From a bacterium (GTDB lineage Bacteria; Babelota; Babeliae; Babelales; UBA12409), in contig JAKANL010000002.1 of NCBI GenBank assembly GCA_021823685.1, forward strand, positions 15,553 through 79,552: a stretch of DNA of 64,000 nucleotides, read 5' to 3'. Position numbers and translations under genes: made by a program. Shown here piece by piece: positions 8,930 through 16,082 of this stretch (positions are counted from its first letter, which is position 1; every line of letters starts with the position of its first letter). The notes under the pieces were generated by a model. That model did no database searches. It saw nothing but the letters and a program-made list of their open reading frames with translations, and was not told the DNA's origin.

Positions 8930-8970
8930 TTTTTCCGAAAATGTACCATCTTTTTCTCAAAGGAGCTCTC

Positions 8971-9975
8971 ATGCAATCGCGTCATTTGGCACTTTGTGCT
9001 TTGTGTATCAGTTCGATAAGCGTATTAACACACACCTACGACCAACCAAAAGGTATCACGCGCTTCCAATCATGGCCTACCGGAATCTCGTATGACAGCG
9101 ATTGTTTTTACGAATTACAACCGCAGCTATACACCGATAAAGTAAGCATATTGAAAAAGAAGTTCAAAATAAGCTCAAAATCTTTTATCATTGACCTTTT
9201 TGGCGTTGAGTTAGCAACTCAATGGTGGCCTTTTGGTTATGAAGGCGACGTTATTCAACACGATCCGCTCGATGCCATAACTCTTGGAGCACAAGCGATT
9301 AGCCCGGCCATTATTCAGGAATCGCTGCGTATTATTTCAACCACCAAGGCGCTTGAAAAACAGAATGAAAACTACGATCAACTGAAGGCTGATGGCCAAC
9401 AATTTGCCACCCTACTGCATGATTCGCTCTGCTCAAAAATCAATCGTTGCCGTTTCGTCAAAGGTATGGCTTTAACAGGTGGCCTCTTGATCTTTGGTCG
9501 TCACATACTTAACCATTTACCTGCGTACGCTCAACAAAAAACAGCCGCGCTTGACGCGCAACTTCCTGCCGTTGTCAATAACTATGCACCTGGCCTAAAT
9601 GCAGTAGCCAAAAATATTTGCGCCAGCGCAACAGGAGTTATAGACGTAACCAATATCGGTGATTTGGCCAAACAAATCGCTGACCAAAAAATAACTCCCC
9701 AGGATAAAGAAAAGCTTTCAAAACAGCTCACGGCATCAACCTGGCTGGGCATGGGCGCACTGGGCTTATACACTTACATGTGGAACAAGTTGCAAGGAAT
9801 CTACATTAGCTGCGGTATCAGATGTTACGACTTATTGCTCAATTCAAATCAACTCACGTTCAGCGATAAGCCTGCAATTAAGAAGCAATTGCTCGAACTC
9901 AAGGGCAAAGTCGCTGCGTTCGGCTTCGATACACGTTATGCCAAAAAGTTCCAAGAATTAGCCGATAAACTATAA
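8971..9975 (+). CDS. Hypothetical signal-peptide protein with two Gly-rich hydrophobic segments (tandem family member A)
   Basis: AAGGAG lies 7 nt upstream of ATG 8971. The leader is MQSRHLALCALCISSISVL. Hydrophobic segments are VKGMALTGGLLIFG and STWLGMGALGLYTYMW. No recognisable catalytic motif. Confidence 0.6.
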   Translation: MQSRHLALCALCISSISVLTHTYDQPKGITRFQSWPTGISYDSDCFYELQPQLYTDKVSILKKKFKISSKSFIIDLFGVELATQWWPFGYEGDVIQHDPLDAITLGAQAISPAIIQESLRIISTTKALEKQNENYDQLKADGQQFATLLHDSLCSKINRCRFVKGMALTGGLLIFGRHILNHLPAYAQQKTAALDAQLPAVVNNYAPGLNAVAKNICASATGVIDVTNIGDLAKQIADQKITPQDKEKLSKQLTASTWLGMGALGLYTYMWNKLQGIYISCGIRCYDLLLNSNQLTFSDKPAIKKQLLELKGKVAAFGFDTRYAKKFQELADKL

Positions 9976-10001
9976 TTTTTCTTAAATCAATCGATATTTA
10001 A

Positions 10002-10038
10002 GTGAGGGCTGCCGCGTTGGCAGTCCTCACTTCTTTTG
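10002..10038 (+). terminator. Rho-independent terminator
   Basis: 12-bp stem GTGAGGGCTGCC/GGCAGTCCTCAC with one G-U pair, a 5-nt loop, then TTCTTTTG. Confidence 0.7.
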
Positions 10039-10096
10039 AGCCAAAAAAGTTAAAGTTTGCTATGCGGTTATTTTAAAAAAATGGCTTAAATACTGA

Positions 10097-10125
10097 TTGA
10101 CGCATTCACCAATTCCAGCTACAAT
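10097..10125 (+). promoter_or_regulatory. Candidate sigma70 promoter for the 10180 gene
   Basis: TTGACG (10097-10102), 17-nt spacer, TACAAT (10120-10125). Confidence 0.55.
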
Positions 10126-10179
10126 GACAAAAGAATGGCCGACTTTTGGCCACAAACATTTTTATCGAATAGGGGTCTC

Positions 10180-10809
10180 GTGAACAAACATTTTCTAGCT
10201 CTTTTCCTATGCATATTCAGCGCGCACGCTTTGGCAACCGAGCACGTTCGTCCGGCAACAGCCGAAGAGCGCCATGTTCTTGTCACAGCCATCGGAAATT
10301 ATTGGCCAGACGTTATTGCGCGACAGCTTAATAACTTGGAAAAAAATAATATTAACTTCAATTTTAACCAGATTTTGAAAGAAGTGCTTTATTCGCTCGA
10401 AGACCGCCGGGCTACGAAAAGGCTCTACATCACACAAATCGCCGGAATGGTCGCTGGAGCCGCGCTCTTTGGGGCAGGATTATTTTACCTTTATCGCGGC
10501 CGCACTGAACTGGCTGAGAAGTACAATATATGGGCCATGCCATGCAAAAACTTACTTGCAGGATCATATGCTTGCGTCCTTGGTGGCCTTCTGGCAAAAG
10601 GATCAGCTGATACCGTCAATCGCATCAACAACAACGGCAGATCATGCAGCAATTTTCATGGACTTGCAGCAGCATTAAATCAAATTAAAAATTCGCCAGC
10701 ATGCTATATAAGCGATAAAGACTTCGCCAGACACTTGTTGGCCCAAATCATCCCCCTAATGCCAACAGCGGAATGGGGTGCCCTCTTTAATCTCGAATGG
10801 TCAATCTAA
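10180..10809 (+). CDS. Hypothetical signal-peptide, two-TM glycine-zipper protein (tandem family member B)
   Basis: GTG at 10180 is preceded by AGGGG, and the predicted transcription start lies only ~3 nt before the ATG at 10135. The leader is VNKHFLALFLCIFSAHALA. TM segments are ITQIAGMVAGAALFGAGLFYLY and LLAGSYACVLGGLLA. Confidence 0.55.
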   Translation: MNKHFLALFLCIFSAHALATEHVRPATAEERHVLVTAIGNYWPDVIARQLNNLEKNNINFNFNQILKEVLYSLEDRRATKRLYITQIAGMVAGAALFGAGLFYLYRGRTELAEKYNIWAMPCKNLLAGSYACVLGGLLAKGSADTVNRINNNGRSCSNFHGLAAALNQIKNSPACYISDKDFARHLLAQIIPLMPTAEWGALFNLEWSI

Positions 10810-10833
10810 CACGGTTGCTTACCAGATTTTTTG

Positions 10834-10862
10834 AAGGCTCCGGAAAATCCGGAGCCTTTTTG
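10834..10862 (+). terminator. Rho-independent terminator
   Basis: Perfect 10-bp stem AAGGCTCCGG/CCGGAGCCTT, 5-nt loop, followed by TTTTGC. Confidence 0.75.
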
Positions 10863-10925
10863 CTTGATGGCGCCAATATTCAATTGAAATATCACTTTAA
10901 TCGAAAAAAACGCCACGCAAAGCGA

Positions 10926-10953
10926 TTGTGTTCGATCGGTAAGGTGATATACT
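10926..10953 (+). promoter_or_regulatory. Candidate extended -10 promoter for the 10981 gene
   Basis: TTGTGT (10926-10931), 16-nt spacer, TGaTATACT (10945-10953). Confidence 0.45.
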
Positions 10954-10980
10954 TAAACAAAAATATTGAAAGGTTTTCCG

Positions 10981-11691
10981 ATGAACAAATTGCACACAAC
11001 CCTACTTTCGTTAGCCCTTTTAACCGTCCCATTTGTAAACGCCAATTATTACCAATGGCTCGACTGTATGCAAGAAGATAAGGTTCTTATTCGTGAAACA
11101 ACCACGATCACCTGCGGCGATAACAGCGGTAGCATGACCAGCGACCGCTATTATAACCTGCAAGATGGCTTTGAAATAGGCTTGCGCTATTCAAATGAAA
11201 TCGCAAATAAAACGCTCAATAAACTTGAAAATCAATACCGCAAAAATGGGCTCACCGCGCAGCTCGATCTCGTCGGCGCTTTGAACATCATTGAACATTC
11301 CTTGGGCGAATCGCGCAGCGGAAAAAGATGGGGCTACGTGGGCGCCGGTATTTTAGGCACTATCGCGGCAGCAGCACTTATAACCGATCCACCCTTCACA
11401 GCTGCGGTAGAACAACGGTTTAATTGGCATGGTATCGGGTTAGGGCTCGGATTTGGCATCACCAAAGATAAGGGTGGCCGTGTTATGGGTGGTATTTGTG
11501 GCGTCCTGGCAATAATAACGGCATTATATGCTCATTACAGCTTTAAGAGCACCTGCAAAGAATACGTTCAGCTTATTGACCGCCTGTTCCAATCGCCCAT
11601 TTTCACCGGCGAAAGCAAATCGCGTGCACGTATGGCATTGCCCAATATTCACCGCATCATGCACGCAAGCGCAGCGCACGTACTGGCCTAA
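10981..11691 (+). CDS. Hypothetical signal-peptide, multi-Gly-zipper membrane protein (tandem family member C)
   Basis: The leader is MNKLHTTLLSLALLTVPFVNA. Hydrophobic segments are WGYVGAGILGTIAAAALI, GIGLGLGFGI and MGGICGVLAIITALY. The stretch LNKLENQ…HSLGESRSGKRWGYVGAG aligns by eye with LNNLEKN…YSLEDRRATKRLYITQIAG in member B. Confidence 0.6.
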   Translation: MNKLHTTLLSLALLTVPFVNANYYQWLDCMQEDKVLIRETTTITCGDNSGSMTSDRYYNLQDGFEIGLRYSNEIANKTLNKLENQYRKNGLTAQLDLVGALNIIEHSLGESRSGKRWGYVGAGILGTIAAAALITDPPFTAAVEQRFNWHGIGLGLGFGITKDKGGRVMGGICGVLAIITALYAHYSFKSTCKEYVQLIDRLFQSPIFTGESKSRARMALPNIHRIMHASAAHVLA

Positions 11692-11719: not shown

Positions 11720-11749
11720 GAGGGCGGGATCTACCCGCCCTCATTTTTG
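11720..11749 (+). terminator. Rho-independent terminator between convergent genes
   Basis: Perfect 9-bp GC stem GAGGGCGGG/CCCGCCCTC, 5-nt loop, then ATTTTTGA. It may also stop the minus-strand herA-like transcript, but the U-tract on that side is weak. Confidence 0.7.
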
Positions 11750-11777: not shown

Positions 11778-13385
11778 CTAAAAGAGTTCGTCGATAACTT
11801 GTTGCGCTTGCAGGGTATCAAGCGCCTGATGTGCGTTCATGGCCTGGTAAAAAGCTTCGTCATATTCGCGTGTTTGGACCACAACCGGCATCGGCACGGC
11901 GTGGCCCAAAAGAAGTGCCTGTTTTTTGGAATCTAAGCTCGCCAAGACGGTTCGCATATGCACCGCATTACTTGTTCCGGTGAGAACAGCGGCGATATCT
12001 TTTTCATCGTTAAGCTGGGCCACAATTTTGGTCCCAATTTGCGATAAAATTTCGCTATCAATACCTGATGGCCGCTGGTCAACAACGAGTAACGAAACAT
12101 AATATTTGCGCATTTCGCGCGCAATAACGCCAAAAATTGTCTGGCTTGCAGCTTGCGGATTCAAAAATTTATGGGCTTCCTCAATCGTTATCATGAGTTT
12201 TTGTGGCTCGTCTTGCAACCGCTGGCTTCCCAAAAATCGTTCGGTACGCGCCACATACTCTTCGTGAATACGCCGCGTAATAATATTGGCAATGAGCAGG
12301 TAACAAAAAGCTGAGTTATAATTGCCAAATTCGATAATCACGTTTATCCCGCGCGCCAAATATCCCATCAATTGATCAATAACATTCTCAAAACCCTGTG
12401 GTGTGGAGGAAAAAAACGGTAACCGTTCAACGCGCTTAATTTTGCGGTAAAGGGCCGCAATAGACTCCGGATGGGCCCCGAGCTCATTGGCAAATTCCTT
12501 AAGACGATCGCCGCTGGAAAGAAGCATGCTCAACCAGTCGTTTTTATACCGCGCCGCAATTAGGTGCGCAGCTTCCAAGGCAGTAGAGTGCAAATTAAGT
12601 TCACTTTGTAGAGAAAGAATATCCTCAACGCCAATAGCCTGGTAAGGCAACGTAATAATAACATCGGGAGCCCCCCCGCGACGCCGCGTAGACGTTGGAT
12701 CCAATGAGAAAATAACGACTTTGTCTGGAAAAAGACTTTTTAATCCCTTAACGAATGATTGGCCCGCACCTTCGCGCCGCGCTTGAATACCGTACTCACC
12801 ATGCATATCAAAAATAAGATTAACCGCCTTTTGCTGCTTGATAAGCCCGGCAAGAACAACGCGTGTTAAGAATGTTTTGCCCGTTCCGGTTTTGCCAAAA
12901 ATGCCGTTACTCCGCTCAGTTAACCGGTCAAGATCGATACACACCGGCGTTGGCATATCCAGCGGTGTCCCCACATTAAAATATCGCCGACTCGCTTCGT
13001 GTTCATCGCCAAAAATAAGCGCAATATCGGCAGCCTGAGCCGAAAAAACTGAAGAAAAATGCCCGGGGATGGTTTTAACAGGAACAATGCGCCCGTGCGC
13101 ATCAAGCATGAGCATAGGCTTGATATGCGCCGTCATATAGACATGCCGCTGTAGCAGCGAATTGCGCAGCAACGTTTCACCCTCGGTCGGCGGAAAGAGC
13201 ACGATATCAGGGTGTGTTACCTCGAGCCTCAAATCGGTAACCAGCGAAAAAAATTTATATGGTGGACATTCAACGGTTAAAAATTTACCGGTTTTGATAT
13301 GTTCAAGAGCAATTCCCGGATTAATACGAACCGTCAATCCTTCACTCAAAGAGCCGGCAACGACCGTTCCCAAAGCAGTATTCAT
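11778..13385 (-). CDS. HerA/DUF87-family (FtsK-HerA superfamily) hexameric ATPase
   Basis: 535 aa with an N-terminal barrel-like region. Walker A is GIFGKTGTGKTFL and Walker B-like is MITIEEAHKF. Its ATG lies 4 nt after the atpC stop. Confidence 0.7.
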   Translation of the reverse strand: MNTALGTVVAGSLSEGLTVRINPGIALEHIKTGKFLTVECPPYKFFSLVTDLRLEVTHPDIVLFPPTEGETLLRNSLLQRHVYMTAHIKPMLMLDAHGRIVPVKTIPGHFSSVFSAQAADIALIFGDEHEASRRYFNVGTPLDMPTPVCIDLDRLTERSNGIFGKTGTGKTFLTRVVLAGLIKQQKAVNLIFDMHGEYGIQARREGAGQSFVKGLKSLFPDKVVIFSLDPTSTRRRGGAPDVIITLPYQAIGVEDILSLQSELNLHSTALEAAHLIAARYKNDWLSMLLSSGDRLKEFANELGAHPESIAALYRKIKRVERLPFFSSTPQGFENVIDQLMGYLARGINVIIEFGNYNSAFCYLLIANIITRRIHEEYVARTERFLGSQRLQDEPQKLMITIEEAHKFLNPQAASQTIFGVIAREMRKYYVSLLVVDQRPSGIDSEILSQIGTKIVAQLNDEKDIAAVLTGTSNAVHMRTVLASLDSKKQALLLGHAVPMPVVVQTREYDEAFYQAMNAHQALDTLQAQQVIDELF

Positions 13386-13389
13386 GTCT

Positions 13390-13629
13390 TCAATCAGCCA
13401 ATAATAACGTTATACTATTGCGGGTAATATGCGCCACGCCGTTAATTATTTTGCGCGTCTCTTCTTTACCGCTGTGCAACCGATACGCAATGGTTGAAAG
13501 CGGCGTAAGCGTAACAACCATAGGCGCGTGTTCGGGTTGAATAATAAAGTTACCCACAGGGGTATTAAGCTCAATCCAGGCAATGCGCACCTCACGCTTT
13601 TCATTGGGACTGGAAATTTGTAGCATCAT
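13390..13629 (-). CDS. atpC: F1 ATP synthase epsilon subunit, beta-sandwich domain only (79 aa)
   Basis: The sequence TPVGNFIIQPEHAPMVVTLTPLSTIAYRL…INGVAHITRNSITLLLAD matches the epsilon N-domain pattern (G.fgI.pgHaP…gG…v..n.vtvLad). It sits directly downstream of atpD. Confidence 0.75.
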   Translation of the reverse strand: MMLQISSPNEKREVRIAWIELNTPVGNFIIQPEHAPMVVTLTPLSTIAYRLHSGKEETRKIINGVAHITRNSITLLLAD

Positions 13630-13633
13630 AGAT

Positions 13634-15076
<1,443 letters not shown>

Positions 15077-15213
15077 CTATACTATTCAAATTACTGAAAG
15101 CGCCGGCTATTGTAAAGGGTAGCCTCACCAGAAAAAAGCTACATTTGCAAAATTTAAATTATCGTGTTAGAAGAAAATTGGTAGTTTAACACTTTAACCG
15201 GCGGAGAGTAACG

Positions 15214-15432
15214 ATGATTTGTGGCAAACTGAGCACGATTGCTTTATTAATCAGCGCAATAGGCGCAATCAACTGGGGCTTAGTCGGAGCTATCGACATC
15301 AACTTGGTAACGTGGTTAGGCATGATGATAAAATCGCCTGATCTATTCCCTAAAATTACCTATATCATTGTCGGTATTGCAGGTATCTATTCGCTCTTTG
15401 ATGGATTTTCCTGCTTGTTCTCTTCAAAATAA
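15214..15432 (+). CDS. DUF378-family small membrane protein
   Basis: 72 aa with two TM segments. The motif IGAINWGLVGAIDINLV is typical of the family. Confidence 0.6.
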   Translation: MICGKLSTIALLISAIGAINWGLVGAIDINLVTWLGMMIKSPDLFPKITYIIVGIAGIYSLFDGFSCLFSSK

Positions 15433-15524: not shown

Positions 15525-16082
15525 TTACGGCCTAGGCGATTCCAAAAAATTAGCAATTTCAAGACGACGCCATCGTAACGCAAGATCGCGCGCAGTACGC
15601 CCCTTACGATCCTTTAACTCTTTTTTGGCGCCGCGGCCCACAAGCGCTTGAACTACCGCCAAATGCCCGTGACTAGCCGCCGTCATTAACGGCGTTCTAC
15701 CCTTCGCGCCAATATCATCGGGCAGGGCACCCGCATTCAAGAGATTATTTACAATAGTTTCATGCCCATACCGTGCAGCCCGATAAAGCGGCCTTCCTTC
15801 GGCAAGGTTGGCGCCTCTTCTAACAAGTTCGTTGACGACCGGCGCCTGACCACGACCCGCAGCCAAGGCCAATGCCGTCAAACCATTACGTTGAAAATTA
15901 ATGTCAACGCCTTGATTAAGCAGCTTTGCCACACCCGCTAAATCACCGCTATATGCAGCATCAAGCAAACGATCTCCGTCGCCGCTGCTCATGGCAAACA
16001 GGTTGGACAAAGCCCCAAAAAAAACAAAAAATAATGTTAATCTGAGATCATTTCCGACAAACAAAGTACCCAATTTATTCAT
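15525..16082 (-). CDS. Ankyrin-repeat protein with N-terminal hydrophobic leader
   Basis: About four ANK units are visible: GLTALALAAGRGQAPVVNELVRRGANL, RPLYRAARYGHETIVNNLLNAGA and GRTPLMTAASHGHLAVVQALVGRGA. The leader is LRLTLFFVFFGALSNLFA. Confidence 0.85.
   Translation of the reverse strand: MNKLGTLFVGNDLRLTLFFVFFGALSNLFAMSSGDGDRLLDAAYSGDLAGVAKLLNQGVDINFQRNGLTALALAAGRGQAPVVNELVRRGANLAEGRPLYRAARYGHETIVNNLLNAGALPDDIGAKGRTPLMTAASHGHLAVVQALVGRGAKKELKDRKGRTARDLALRWRRLEIANFLESPRP

Follow-up and report, generated by a model that had tools for sequence, protein, structure and literature searches.

The 535-amino-acid protein encoded directly behind atpD and atpC in a Dependentiae (TM6) bacterium is, judged by its profile matches and its predicted fold, a HerA-family ATPase, and its gene order with the ATP synthase genes recurs across much of the phylum, while the orthologues of other phyla lie in DNA-repair operons. 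We consider it fairly probable that this protein is a DNA-end-processing HerA which makes use of the atpDC promoter, its link to ATP synthase being one of expression and inherited gene order and not of mechanism. Throughout the text, the window denotes the whole stretch of 64,000 nucleotides that was analysed.

Layout of the atpD-atpC-herA block

In the window, atpD, atpC and herA lie head-to-tail on the minus strand, and the open reading frames and coordinates given for them in an initial annotation of this DNA proved correct. That annotation had also pointed to a gap of only 4 nt from the atpC stop to the herA start, which is borne out by the junction sequence GCT GAT TGA-AGAC-ATG. The features of the locus are the following.

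13634 to 15067, minus strand: atpD, the leading gene of the block, for the 477-aa beta subunit of F1 ATP synthase (TIGR01039, PF00006, PF02874, PF22919)
13390 to 13629, minus strand: atpC, F1 epsilon subunit, 79 aa, beta-sandwich domain only (PF02823)
13386 to 13389, minus strand: the 4 nt AGAC that separate the TGA of atpC from the ATG of herA (sequence reading)
11778 to 13385, minus strand: herA-family ATPase, predicted to be hexameric, 535 aa, with HAS barrel, RecA-like ATPase and helical insertion (PF01935, AF2 model, Foldseek)
13011 to 13385, minus strand: N-terminal HAS-barrel domain of HerA, about aa 1-125 (weak PF09378 match, model)
12873 to 12896, minus strand: Walker A motif GKTGTGKT, aa 164-171 (sequence reading, family alignment)
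12171 to 12191, minus strand: Walker B/catalytic motif ITIEEAH, aa 399-405 (sequence reading, family alignment)
11720 to 11742, no strand assigned: GC-rich hairpin in the interval between herA and the convergent gene (terminator scan)
15068 to 15213, minus strand: intergenic region 5' of atpD, presumed promoter location of the block (a divergent gene starts at 15214)

Gene packing in the window is dense, and many unrelated genes abut. A terminator and a convergent gene had been described behind herA. The terminator scan indeed finds a hairpin there (11720-11742; 9-bp stem, 8 GC pairs), but its T-run lies in the plus-strand tail ATTTTTGAGA, so that in strict terms it terminates the convergent gene at 10966-11691; it may also end herA transcription. 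Neither this gene nor those at 10135-10809 and 8941-9975 gave a significant Pfam match, and the flanking open reading frames and their Pfam matches confirm that no NurA, SIR2 or DUF4297 gene stands beside herA in the window. At the other end, the promoter of the block would lie upstream of atpD, within 15068-15213, an interval in which a scan for the sigma-70 consensus matched no site. Across the scanned region four sigma-70-like sites were observed vs 5.8 expected, i.e. chance level or below, and an internal promoter is thus neither supported nor excluded. One weak promoter-like site is located inside atpC (13568-13541, 9 of 12 matches).

The atpD product is a canonical F1 beta subunit (TIGR01039, 746 bits against a cutoff of 463; further matches to PF00006, PF02874 and PF22919). 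The atpC product matches PF02823 (35.1 bits, cutoff 27; E = 1.4e-8), with residues 3-76 of 79 aligned to positions 3-76 of the 80-position profile, and stops three residues past this beta-sandwich match, so the C-terminal two-helix domain is absent, as had been noted before. The short epsilon had been singled out as a feature of the locus; by the profile evidence it is nothing unusual, as orthologues from 16 Dependentiae loci are 79-88 aa long and likewise lack the C-terminal domain, and NCBIfam already holds a curated epsilon model of 88 positions (NF009983). Short epsilons are also said to have been reported for Bacteroidetes and Chlorobi by Feniouk et al. in 2006; searching the literature for a reference on this point yielded nothing useful. 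Bacteroidota and Chlorobiota combine a split atpDC with a short epsilon. The window resembles them in its beta-sandwich-only epsilon and in having atpD-atpC as a unit of its own, apart from the atpE-b'-b-delta-alpha cluster at 41741-44971, but differs in that a third gene, herA, is appended. The atpA gene of the window is not followed by atpG, and atpE is not preceded by atpB; among 30 window open reading frames no Pfam match to either was found, and tblastn with approximate E. coli queries, a weak test, returned no match in the window or in any locus. TM6 genomes are described as devoid of a respiratory chain, with an ATP synthase proposed to run toward hydrolysis (PMC4776705). The short epsilon is probably a separate lineage trait, one that would fit a mainly ATP-hydrolysing synthase in fermentative, ATP-importing parasites.

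Family, motifs and fold of the ATPase

Profile searches assign the ATPase to a subtype, for which a VirB4-like protein had also been considered. The 535-aa protein matches PF01935 (DUF87, the HerA central domain) at 3e-30 (gathering score 23.2), and its best NCBIfam and PADLOC matches are HerA models. Matches to VirB4, TraG/TrwB or FtsK are only partial and sub-threshold, and membership of these families was rejected. The PF09378 HAS-barrel match on residues 6-60 is weak (19 against a gathering score of 25.2), and the AF2 monomer model (pLDDT 93.6, pTM 0.91) has beta-barrel secondary structure at E6-E115. With this model the best Foldseek matches are all HerA-type rings, led by the HerA-NurA complex of T. 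kodakarensis (9x1m), TdpAB (8wfd) and Sulfolobus HerA (4d2i) at E values of 1e-25 to 6e-27, and HerA protomers are matched over the full length at TM scores of 0.6-0.7. Profile and model together identify the protein as a full HerA of the HerA/DUF87 clade of the FtsK-HerA superfamily, which would presumably work as a hexameric, dsDNA-translocating ring. Both motifs named in the initial annotation are present, Walker A as GIFGKTGTGKTF at nt 12873-12896 and ITIEEAH at nt 12171-12191. In an alignment of 69 family sequences G167, G169 and K170 of Walker A as well as E403, R423 and K427 are invariant, while conservation reaches 90% or more at I399, E402, A404 and H405.

Compared to archaeal HerA-NurA (4d2i, 9x1m), the window protein shares the three-part fold of HAS barrel, RecA-like ATPase and helical insertion (Foldseek E 6e-27 to 2e-25, TM 0.62-0.71) and the conserved Walker A and B motifs, but is only 16-20% identical. 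It scores 88.5 bits (cutoff 800) with NF040937 and 73.3 bits (cutoff 970) with NF040819, the NurA-HerA equivalogs, and 88.4 bits (cutoff 800) with NF042943 and 72.2 bits (cutoff 850) with NF042944, the anti-phage HerA equivalogs. Scores so far below the cutoffs indicate that it is not an equivalog of the archaeal enzyme and belongs to a distinct bacterial lineage. The HerA hexamer of Deinococcus radiodurans (7wrx) threads dsDNA and docks NurA on its HAS-barrel face; according to the available text of the source its gene forms an operon with nurA, and the two were deleted together as such, with no mention of a third, HAS-barrel gene in that text (PMC9960219). This protein appears neither in our PDB sequence search (E <= 0.01) nor among the best 50 full-protein fold matches, and the window family is thus a different bacterial HerA lineage.

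Gene order within and outside Dependentiae

The synteny survey covered 27 assessable Dependentiae-clade loci and 46 assessable loci from other phyla, and it bears out conserved atpC-herA adjacency across much of Dependentiae. The two genes are tightly spaced (-4 to about 80 nt) in 14 of the 27 loci, with differing outer flanks, and are split by inserted accessory genes in four more, so that linkage holds in 18 overall; in the other nine herA lies elsewhere than atpDC. The inserts include a nucleotidyltransferase/HEPN-like pair and transposase-like remnants, and in one clade with unlinked herA the gene precedes skp-lpxD-prs-pth-like genes (the pair and the latter genes being named by sequence only). 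No HerA orthologue of another phylum was found beside atpDC (0/46 loci). Spacings in other Dependentiae are -4, -4, -4/-1, 1, 5, 5, 10, 11-20, 18, 26-83 and 70 nt, and three species show a 4-nt stop/start overlap of atpC and herA. In a neighbour-joining tree of HerA the adjacent state is found throughout the Dependentiae clade, its earliest branch included, and the non-adjacent loci form one clade plus scattered tips. The gene itself is a monophyletic, vertically inherited and highly conserved core gene of Dependentiae, with more than 120 orthologues from the phylum among the matches listed (68-73% identity). Taken together, these counts show that the arrangement is ancestral to the phylum and dispensable.

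A chance juxtaposition peculiar to this compact genome had been put forward as one explanation, and the dense packing of the window, where many unrelated genes abut, would agree with it. The survey refutes it, since the same order and tight spacing recur in 14 Dependentiae-clade species across the clade while the outer flanks vary, and we regard it as virtually without prospect. The second explanation offered, a genuine atpDC-herA transcription unit, fares better: the tight block is conserved across Dependentiae, and co-transcription of atpD-atpC-herA, as read from gene order and spacing, is probable. In the reading we favour, herA would have been placed directly behind atpD-atpC in the Dependentiae ancestor, where the atpDC promoter would most likely drive its transcription and its translation would be coupled to that of atpC.

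The same data bear on a functional link between herA and F1, in which the HerA ring would act as a beta/epsilon assembly factor or as a substitute regulator for the missing epsilon C-terminal domain. Tight spacing, 4-nt overlaps included, kept in 14 species amid variable flanks, the phylum-wide loss of the epsilon C-terminal domain, and the HAS barrel that HerA has in common with F1 alpha/beta according to the PF09378 description would suit such a link. It is nonetheless very improbable in our estimate: linkage is lost or interrupted in 13 of the 27 Dependentiae loci, where herA stays intact and well conserved, one clade has herA before the skp-like gene set, none of the 46 loci of other phyla is atp-linked and DNA-repair operons are found there, the whole HerA fold matches DNA translocases, and epsilons of similar length already have a curated model. 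A functional tie of HerA to F1 thus appears to be absent.

Some observations count against the reading we favour, among them the shortfall of the protein from every curated HerA equivalog cutoff and the weak promoter-like site inside atpC; two more come from the survey. The 4-nt overlaps indicate that, where kept, the atpC-herA coupling is held very tight. Within-phylum identity of HerA (60-71%, vs 67-81% for AtpD and 26-67% for AtpC) exceeds what is expected of an accessory repair gene in reduced genomes. Our literature search found no paper joining 'Dependentiae' and 'HerA', and in the available text of the sources that mention HerA together with atpD and atpC these co-mentions are incidental gene lists only.

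Repair operons, partner genes and the role of HerA

In the sister clades the gene order is nurA - small HAS-barrel protein - herA (- mre11 - rad50). A nurA gene at position -2 and a HAS-barrel gene of about 200 aa at -1 are found in loci of Latescibacterota, Gemmatimonadota, Handelsmanbacteria, Entotheonella, Armatimonadota and Chloroflexi; nurA, identified by PF09376 at 1.8e-43, lies two genes upstream of herA in 10 sister-phylum loci. Downstream of herA, two loci (L029 and L050) carry mre11 and a rad50-like gene of 1009-1015 aa, and a third (L053) carries mre11. These operons are of the archaeal nurA...herA-mre11-rad50 style, but contain the stand-alone HAS-barrel protein as an extra component, and Dependentiae depart further from the archaeal case in having the genes dispersed, no NurA found nearby and herA attached to atpDC. 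Since orthologues elsewhere lie in DNA-break-repair operons, the link of herA with ATP synthase looks like shared transcription and not shared function.

The HAS-barrel protein is kept in Dependentiae as well, with more than 120 homologues among the matches listed (about 60% identity; some entries bear the name Dependentiae or Babeliales) and a conserved rnhB-linked gene context away from herA. Its AF2 model (pLDDT 88.7), made for database proteins, finds its matches solely among HAS barrels of the HerA family. Within the window no such protein was found by tblastn with 120 homologues and a six-frame profile search. The ATPase had been described as a partnerless HerA; given that its HAS-barrel partner is conserved throughout Dependentiae at another locus and that sister-phylum operons hold both nurA and the HAS-barrel gene, it is not partnerless. 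To a large extent the ATPase thus proves to belong to an established family whose partner is found at a different locus, and its adjacency to atpC is not unique to one genome. Of the further module genes, a module-type Mre11 homologue occurs in one Dependentiae locus (L013), 6 kb from herA on the opposite strand, and neither mre11 nor rad50 was found in the window.

For NurA, a narrow profile built from only 10 sister-clade sequences was run on all open reading frames of the neighbourhoods. It found no NurA up to 10 kb from herA in any of 27 Dependentiae species and none in 83 loci (665 kb) taken around the HAS-barrel gene; the window has none either, and PF09376 is absent from the Pfam lists of six Dependentiae neighbourhoods. 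The best match of the profile in Dependentiae loci (E 0.047) is holo-ACP synthase-like by its N-terminal sequence, and unannotated neighbours of the HAS-barrel gene resemble secreted or membrane proteins rather than nucleases. No nuclease for the presumed HerA machine has thus emerged from the Dependentiae neighbourhoods, which counts against a role in resection.

An anti-phage or defence protein like the HerA of SIR2-HerA or DUF4297-HerA, with its effector gene lost or elsewhere, would share the hexamer fold, and the fold matches include structures from both systems; PADLOC HerA models and the NCBIfam HerA_antiphage model match at E values of 1e-25 to 7e-34, the latter value being the best for PADLOC. 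These scores are far under the equivalog cutoffs (88 vs 800) and no better than those for archaeal repair HerA. Unlike SIR2-HerA/Nezha and DUF4297-HerA, the window protein has no effector partner, SIR2 and DUF4297 neighbours being absent from the window flanks, from the six Pfam-listed Dependentiae neighbourhoods and from the recurrent neighbour families of at least 80 loci. Its gene is a vertically inherited, monophyletic phylum core gene, unlike patchy defence islands, and its orthologues are linked to nurA, mre11 and rad50. We hold a defence role to be highly improbable.

A weightier alternative, though an unlikely one, is that HerA has been repurposed, ring and HAS-barrel protein forming a NurA-free, essential housekeeping DNA translocase for segregation/resolution or fork rescue, with placement behind atpDC giving constitutive high expression. 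Such a role would agree with the negative NurA search around herA and around the HAS-barrel gene, some 1.2 Mb from Dependentiae in all, with a conservation of HerA within the phylum nearly as strong as that of AtpD, with the retention of both proteins in hundreds of Dependentiae assemblies, and with TM6 cell-division machinery described as degenerate (PMC4776705). Cyanobacterial family members, which are 47-50% identical to the window HerA over its full length, likewise have no nurA or HAS-barrel gene found beside them. Synechocystis Sll0284 (KEGG K06915) has the same architecture of DUF87 and N-terminal HAS barrel and is probably of the same family, but is without atp-gene linkage; it is reported only as a nucleic-acid-associated candidate that sediments as part of a large complex, and such bacterial proteins are reported to be largely undescribed (PMC8136920). 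On the other hand, the NurA search covered neighbourhoods only and used a narrow profile, the closest orthologues lie in classical nurA/mre11/rad50 operons, at least one genome of the phylum still carries an Mre11 homologue of the module type, and no tie between HerA and division genes was seen. A more specific form, in which Dependentiae lost NurA and HerA with the HAS-barrel protein became an essential nuclease-independent translocase (e.g. in segregation/resolution) whose level follows that of ATP-synthase beta/epsilon, the main ATP-hydrolysing proton pump, is in our view distinctly less likely still.

We retain DNA-end processing as the presumable function of HerA in Dependentiae. The 535-aa protein would represent, in this phylum, a HerA that is widespread among bacteria, a hexameric ATP-driven dsDNA translocase, and the sister-phylum module nurA - HAS-barrel - herA (- mre11 - rad50) would serve DNA-end resection in double-strand-break repair. 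The remaining module genes would have been scattered behind housekeeping genes, the HAS-barrel gene after rnhB and mre11, as seen in one genome, after a gene that resembles glmU in its N-terminal sequence, the sole basis for the name.

In Dependentiae, then, atpDC-herA is a genuine feature of gene order at the level of the phylum, and should not be taken for the sign of a new ATP-synthase accessory subunit. In this phylum repair genes are dispersed and attached to housekeeping operons, which raises the question whether the NurA nuclease was lost while the HerA motor stays under strong constraint. A widely conserved and largely uncharacterised bacterial DUF87 family, distributed over Dependentiae, many cyanobacteria, Chloroflexi and phyla of the FCB group, is now assigned to a NurA/Mre11/Rad50 repair neighbourhood. 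The more interesting lead is the stand-alone HAS-barrel protein, a third and apparently undescribed component of the bacterial module.

The atpD-atpC-herA block and its surroundings in the window

In the window, atpD, atpC and the 535-aa ORF, here called herA, lie in head-to-tail order on the minus strand, as described in the initial annotation.

Genes and hairpin of the block
13634-15067, minus strand: atpD, 477 aa, canonical F1 beta
13390-13629, minus strand: atpC, 79 aa, PF02823 match
11778-13385, minus strand: herA, 535-aa ORF, PF01935 match
11720-11742: strong hairpin 3' of herA, T-run on the plus strand

AtpD scores 746 bits against TIGR01039 (cutoff 463). The junction reads ...GCT GAT TGA AGAC ATG AAT..., which confirms the described 4-nt gap between the atpC stop and the herA start. 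Of the terminator proposed behind herA, the strong hairpin stands, but its T-run lies on the plus strand and it is thus formally the terminator of the convergent gene. None of the flanking genes encodes NurA, SIR2 or DUF4297, in line with the reported lack of such a neighbour.

The PF02823 beta-sandwich is the sole domain match in AtpC and covers residues 3-76 of 79; epsilon had thus rightly been described as terminating at the end of this fold. The short AtpC is conserved at 79-88 aa in Dependentiae (TM6), and a curated epsilon model of 88 positions exists. This short form is a lineage trait in its own right and fits a published proposal, by which the ATP synthase of TM6 would mainly run as an ATPase that maintains a proton gradient (PMC4776705).

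The other ATP-synthase genes form a separate minus-strand cluster at 41741-44971. A deoxynucleoside kinase gene, not atpB, precedes atpE, and an LRR+RING gene, not atpG, follows atpA; the gamma and a subunits were not found among the 30 Pfam-scanned window ORFs.

Further genes of the window
44729-44971, minus strand: atpE, named from sequence
44303-44668, minus strand: b', named from sequence
43807-44310, minus strand: b, named from sequence
43265-43810, minus strand: delta, Pfam support
41741-43249, minus strand: alpha (atpA), Pfam support
40966-41616: LRR + RING-finger protein, eukaryote-like/effector-like
15525-16082: ankyrin-repeat protein, eukaryote-like/effector-like
45877-46767: TcdA/TcdB-type glycosyltransferase, eukaryote-like/effector-like
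58291-59460 and 60988-62313: two AAA_14 + DUF4143 ATPase-type genes, Pfam-confirmed

LRR+RING, ankyrin and TcdA/TcdB-type glycosyltransferase genes are typical of intracellular parasites of protists. The AAA_14 + DUF4143 type recurs at other Dependentiae herA loci (numbered L, with locus-internal coordinates), namely at L003:5195-6097 (precomputed Pfam) and L010:13488-14714 (sequence similarity only).

Family and fold of the ATPase

The ATPase, described at first as HerA-like, contains both motifs quoted for it and is HerA-type by PF01935 (DUF87, HerA central domain; 3e-30) and by fold, while its HAS-barrel match is weak. An AlphaFold model built with 69 relatives (pLDDT 93.6, pTM 0.91) finds only HerA-type protomers as best PDB matches, in the order T. 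kodakarensis HerA-NurA (9x1m), TdpAB, Sulfolobus HerA (4d2i), followed by the defence complexes SIR2-HerA and DUF4297-HerA. In sequence, the protein is only distantly similar to solved HerA structures (best E 3e-18, partial) and scores far below all curated HerA equivalog cutoffs, hence it belongs to a distinct HerA lineage. An active ATPase can be presumed, since Walker A K170, E403, R423 and K427 do not vary within the family.

Among the at least 120 matches listed, one is 98% identical and the others 68-73%, essentially over full length, and the named entries are 'Candidatus Dependentiae' or 'Babeliales'. These matches, along with the eukaryote-like genes listed above, identify the window as Dependentiae (TM6) DNA. 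An exhaustive HMMER search of 1.84 billion cluster representatives gave 242 clusters at E <= 1e-30, including full-length relatives at 30-50% identity from Chloroflexi, Actinobacteria and an Asgard archaeon. The species scan (see below) added orthologues with 52-58% identity in Latescibacterota, Zixibacteria, Gemmatimonadota, Handelsmanbacteria, Entotheonella and Armatimonadota, and with 47-52% in Rhodothermales, Chloroflexi and many cyanobacteria.

Conservation of the adjacency

In three Dependentiae assemblies with differing outer flanks, exact-protein look-ups revealed the order atpD - atpC (80-82 aa) - DUF87. A species scan with the family alignment as query and one genome per GTDB species yielded 80 loci, in which adjacency was counted by tblastn with the window's AtpD, AtpC and HerA together with ORF spacing.

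Arrangement at assessable herA loci
Dependentiae clade, 27 loci: tight (-4 to about 80 nt) 14; interrupted 4; herA elsewhere 9
Other phyla, 46 loci: tight 0; interrupted 0; herA elsewhere 46

The atpC-herA adjacency, for which the initial annotation had considered either chance or a genuine transcription unit, thus recurs tightly in relatives. This refutes pure chance, whose probability we regard as negligible. In three of the 14 tight loci the genes share a 4-nt ATGA overlap, and in the interrupted ones 0.5-3 kb of accessory genes separate atpC from herA.

Genes inserted precisely at the atpC-herA junction (four Dependentiae species)
L011:9252-9985
L008:527-1893
L012:6946-9867
L014:9510-9998

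Judged by sequence alone, the L011 insert resembles a toxin-antitoxin pair of the nucleotidyltransferase + HEPN type, arranged like an operon, with stop and start codons that overlap; L008 carries transposase-like remnants, and the inserts also include a gene for a secreted protein and, on the opposite strand, one of 973 aa. At the nine loci with herA elsewhere, atpDC was not found in the upstream flank (10 kb in eight, 4 kb in L020). One non-adjacent clade (L023, L046, L047, L083; herA at about 10001-11590) shows the order (acpS or mnmG)-herA-skp-lpxD-prs-pth as its conserved context, the neighbours being named from N-terminal sequences only.

On a neighbour-joining tree of HerA, Dependentiae are monophyletic. 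Adjacent loci are found all over the clade and also on its earliest branch; the non-adjacent loci form one clade plus scattered tips. Most simply, the Dependentiae ancestor had the atpD-atpC-herA block, which was later lost or interrupted at least five times; the adjacency is therefore real and old, yet dispensable. A functional coupling of HerA to F1 is improbable, since the linkage was repeatedly lost and is wholly absent from the 46 assessable loci outside Dependentiae.

A lon protease gene often lies directly upstream of atpD on the same strand, three to four genes upstream of herA (L001, L014, L015, L016, L019, L021, L025); the conserved block may thus be larger, lon / atpD-atpC-herA. L001 has a second Lon-like gene after herA. 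The herA of one Dependentiae MAG (L083:9989-11595) consists of two ORFs that overlap (9989-11188, 11185-11595), owing to a frameshift or pseudogenization or else to misassembly. The MAGs L010, L013, L016, L028, L040 and L046 carry the record title 'uncultured Pseudomonadota', yet by HerA they group within Dependentiae (62-68% identity), probably a taxonomic mislabel.

Orthologue context and the stand-alone HAS-barrel protein

Clustering of all ORFs around the scanned herA loci showed that in the clades closest to Dependentiae a ~420-aa NurA (PF09376, 1.8e-43) and a ~200-aa protein with a HAS-barrel signature precede herA; in L050 and L029, mre11 and then a 1009-1015-aa rad50-like gene follow it. 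This arrangement corresponds to the archaeal-type operon for double-strand-break end resection, with one small gene added. Cyanobacterial orthologues neighbour a GST-like gene and a sigma factor, and nurA was not found among their clustered neighbour ORFs. Synechocystis Sll0284 (DUF87 + HAS barrel), probably a member of this family, is assigned by one paper to a largely undescribed bacterial protein group (PMC8136920).

The extra gene lies directly upstream of herA in L027, L029, L031, L033, L037, L039, L041, L044, L050, L051 and L053. Its product, flanked by nurA and herA in several phyla, comprises ~200 aa with a HerA-type HAS barrel and a helical tail. The AF2 model (pLDDT 88.7) matches solely HAS-barrel domains of HerA proteins, and its strand order mirrors that of HerA residues 1-125 in AF2 models; a profile-profile comparison with the N-terminus of HerA gives a weak match (E 5.7e-4, probability 30%).

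Module genes at other Dependentiae loci
L009:3089-3685, L088:7001-7603, L090:7001-7603 and L091:9537-10145: stand-alone HAS-barrel gene
L013:17206-18447, minus strand: mre11 homologue of the module type, immediately following a gene judged glmU-like by its N-terminus alone

HerA had been called partnerless, which does not hold: the HAS-barrel protein is conserved across Dependentiae at ~60% identity (more than 120 homologues, some of them labelled Dependentiae or Babeliales), at a locus of its own that is linked to rnhB. There, truA-typA-rpsR-rpsF-lexA-like on one strand and rnhB - HAS-barrel protein ... ftsY on the other form a conserved context. In the lineage of L009 and L091 the gene shares the strand of atpD-atpC-herA and precedes this block by 2-5 kb; it was not found in the 64-kb window. 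The L013 Mre11 groups with those linked to herA in Entotheonella and Chloroflexi. Here too a repair gene is attached to a housekeeping gene; rad50 was not found beside this mre11.

With a narrow NurA profile, NurA was not found adjoining herA in 27 Dependentiae species or adjoining the HAS-barrel gene in 83 loci (665 kb), and it is absent from the precomputed Pfam lists of six Dependentiae neighbourhoods. This lack in the neighbourhoods searched would suit a repurposed, nuclease-independent machine of HerA and HAS-barrel protein, as would the strong conservation of HerA within Dependentiae (60-71% identity, vs 67-81% for AtpD and 26-67% for AtpC), although we consider such a machine rather unlikely. 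A defence-type HerA is highly improbable, as the gene behaves as a core gene and has no effector gene among its neighbours.

We favor the reading that HerA is probably the Dependentiae orthologue of the bacterial HerA dsDNA translocase in a NurA / HAS-barrel protein / HerA / Mre11-Rad50 end-processing module, with a likely role in DNA repair. The module genes would have been dispersed in Dependentiae and each attached to a housekeeping operon, with herA now following atpDC, the HAS-barrel gene following rnhB, and mre11 following the glmU-like gene. Presumably co-transcribed with atpDC, herA would most likely rely on the promoter of atpDC and on being translationally coupled to atpC, and this dependence would itself conserve gene order without a functional tie. 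Accessory-gene inserts and relocated herA copies show that the tie to atpDC is breakable. Fold, family, synteny pattern and orthologue context were demonstrated directly, and co-transcription and the role in DNA repair were deduced.

No mention of HerA in Dependentiae was found in the literature, and papers co-naming HerA, atpD and atpC look, by title and abstract, like incidental gene lists. The atpDC-herA block is an undescribed, modest synteny trait. Of more interest, as a by-product, is the stand-alone HAS-barrel gene within bacterial nurA-herA operons, of which a limited literature search found no description and whose product looks like an undescribed third component of the bacterial NurA-HerA module.
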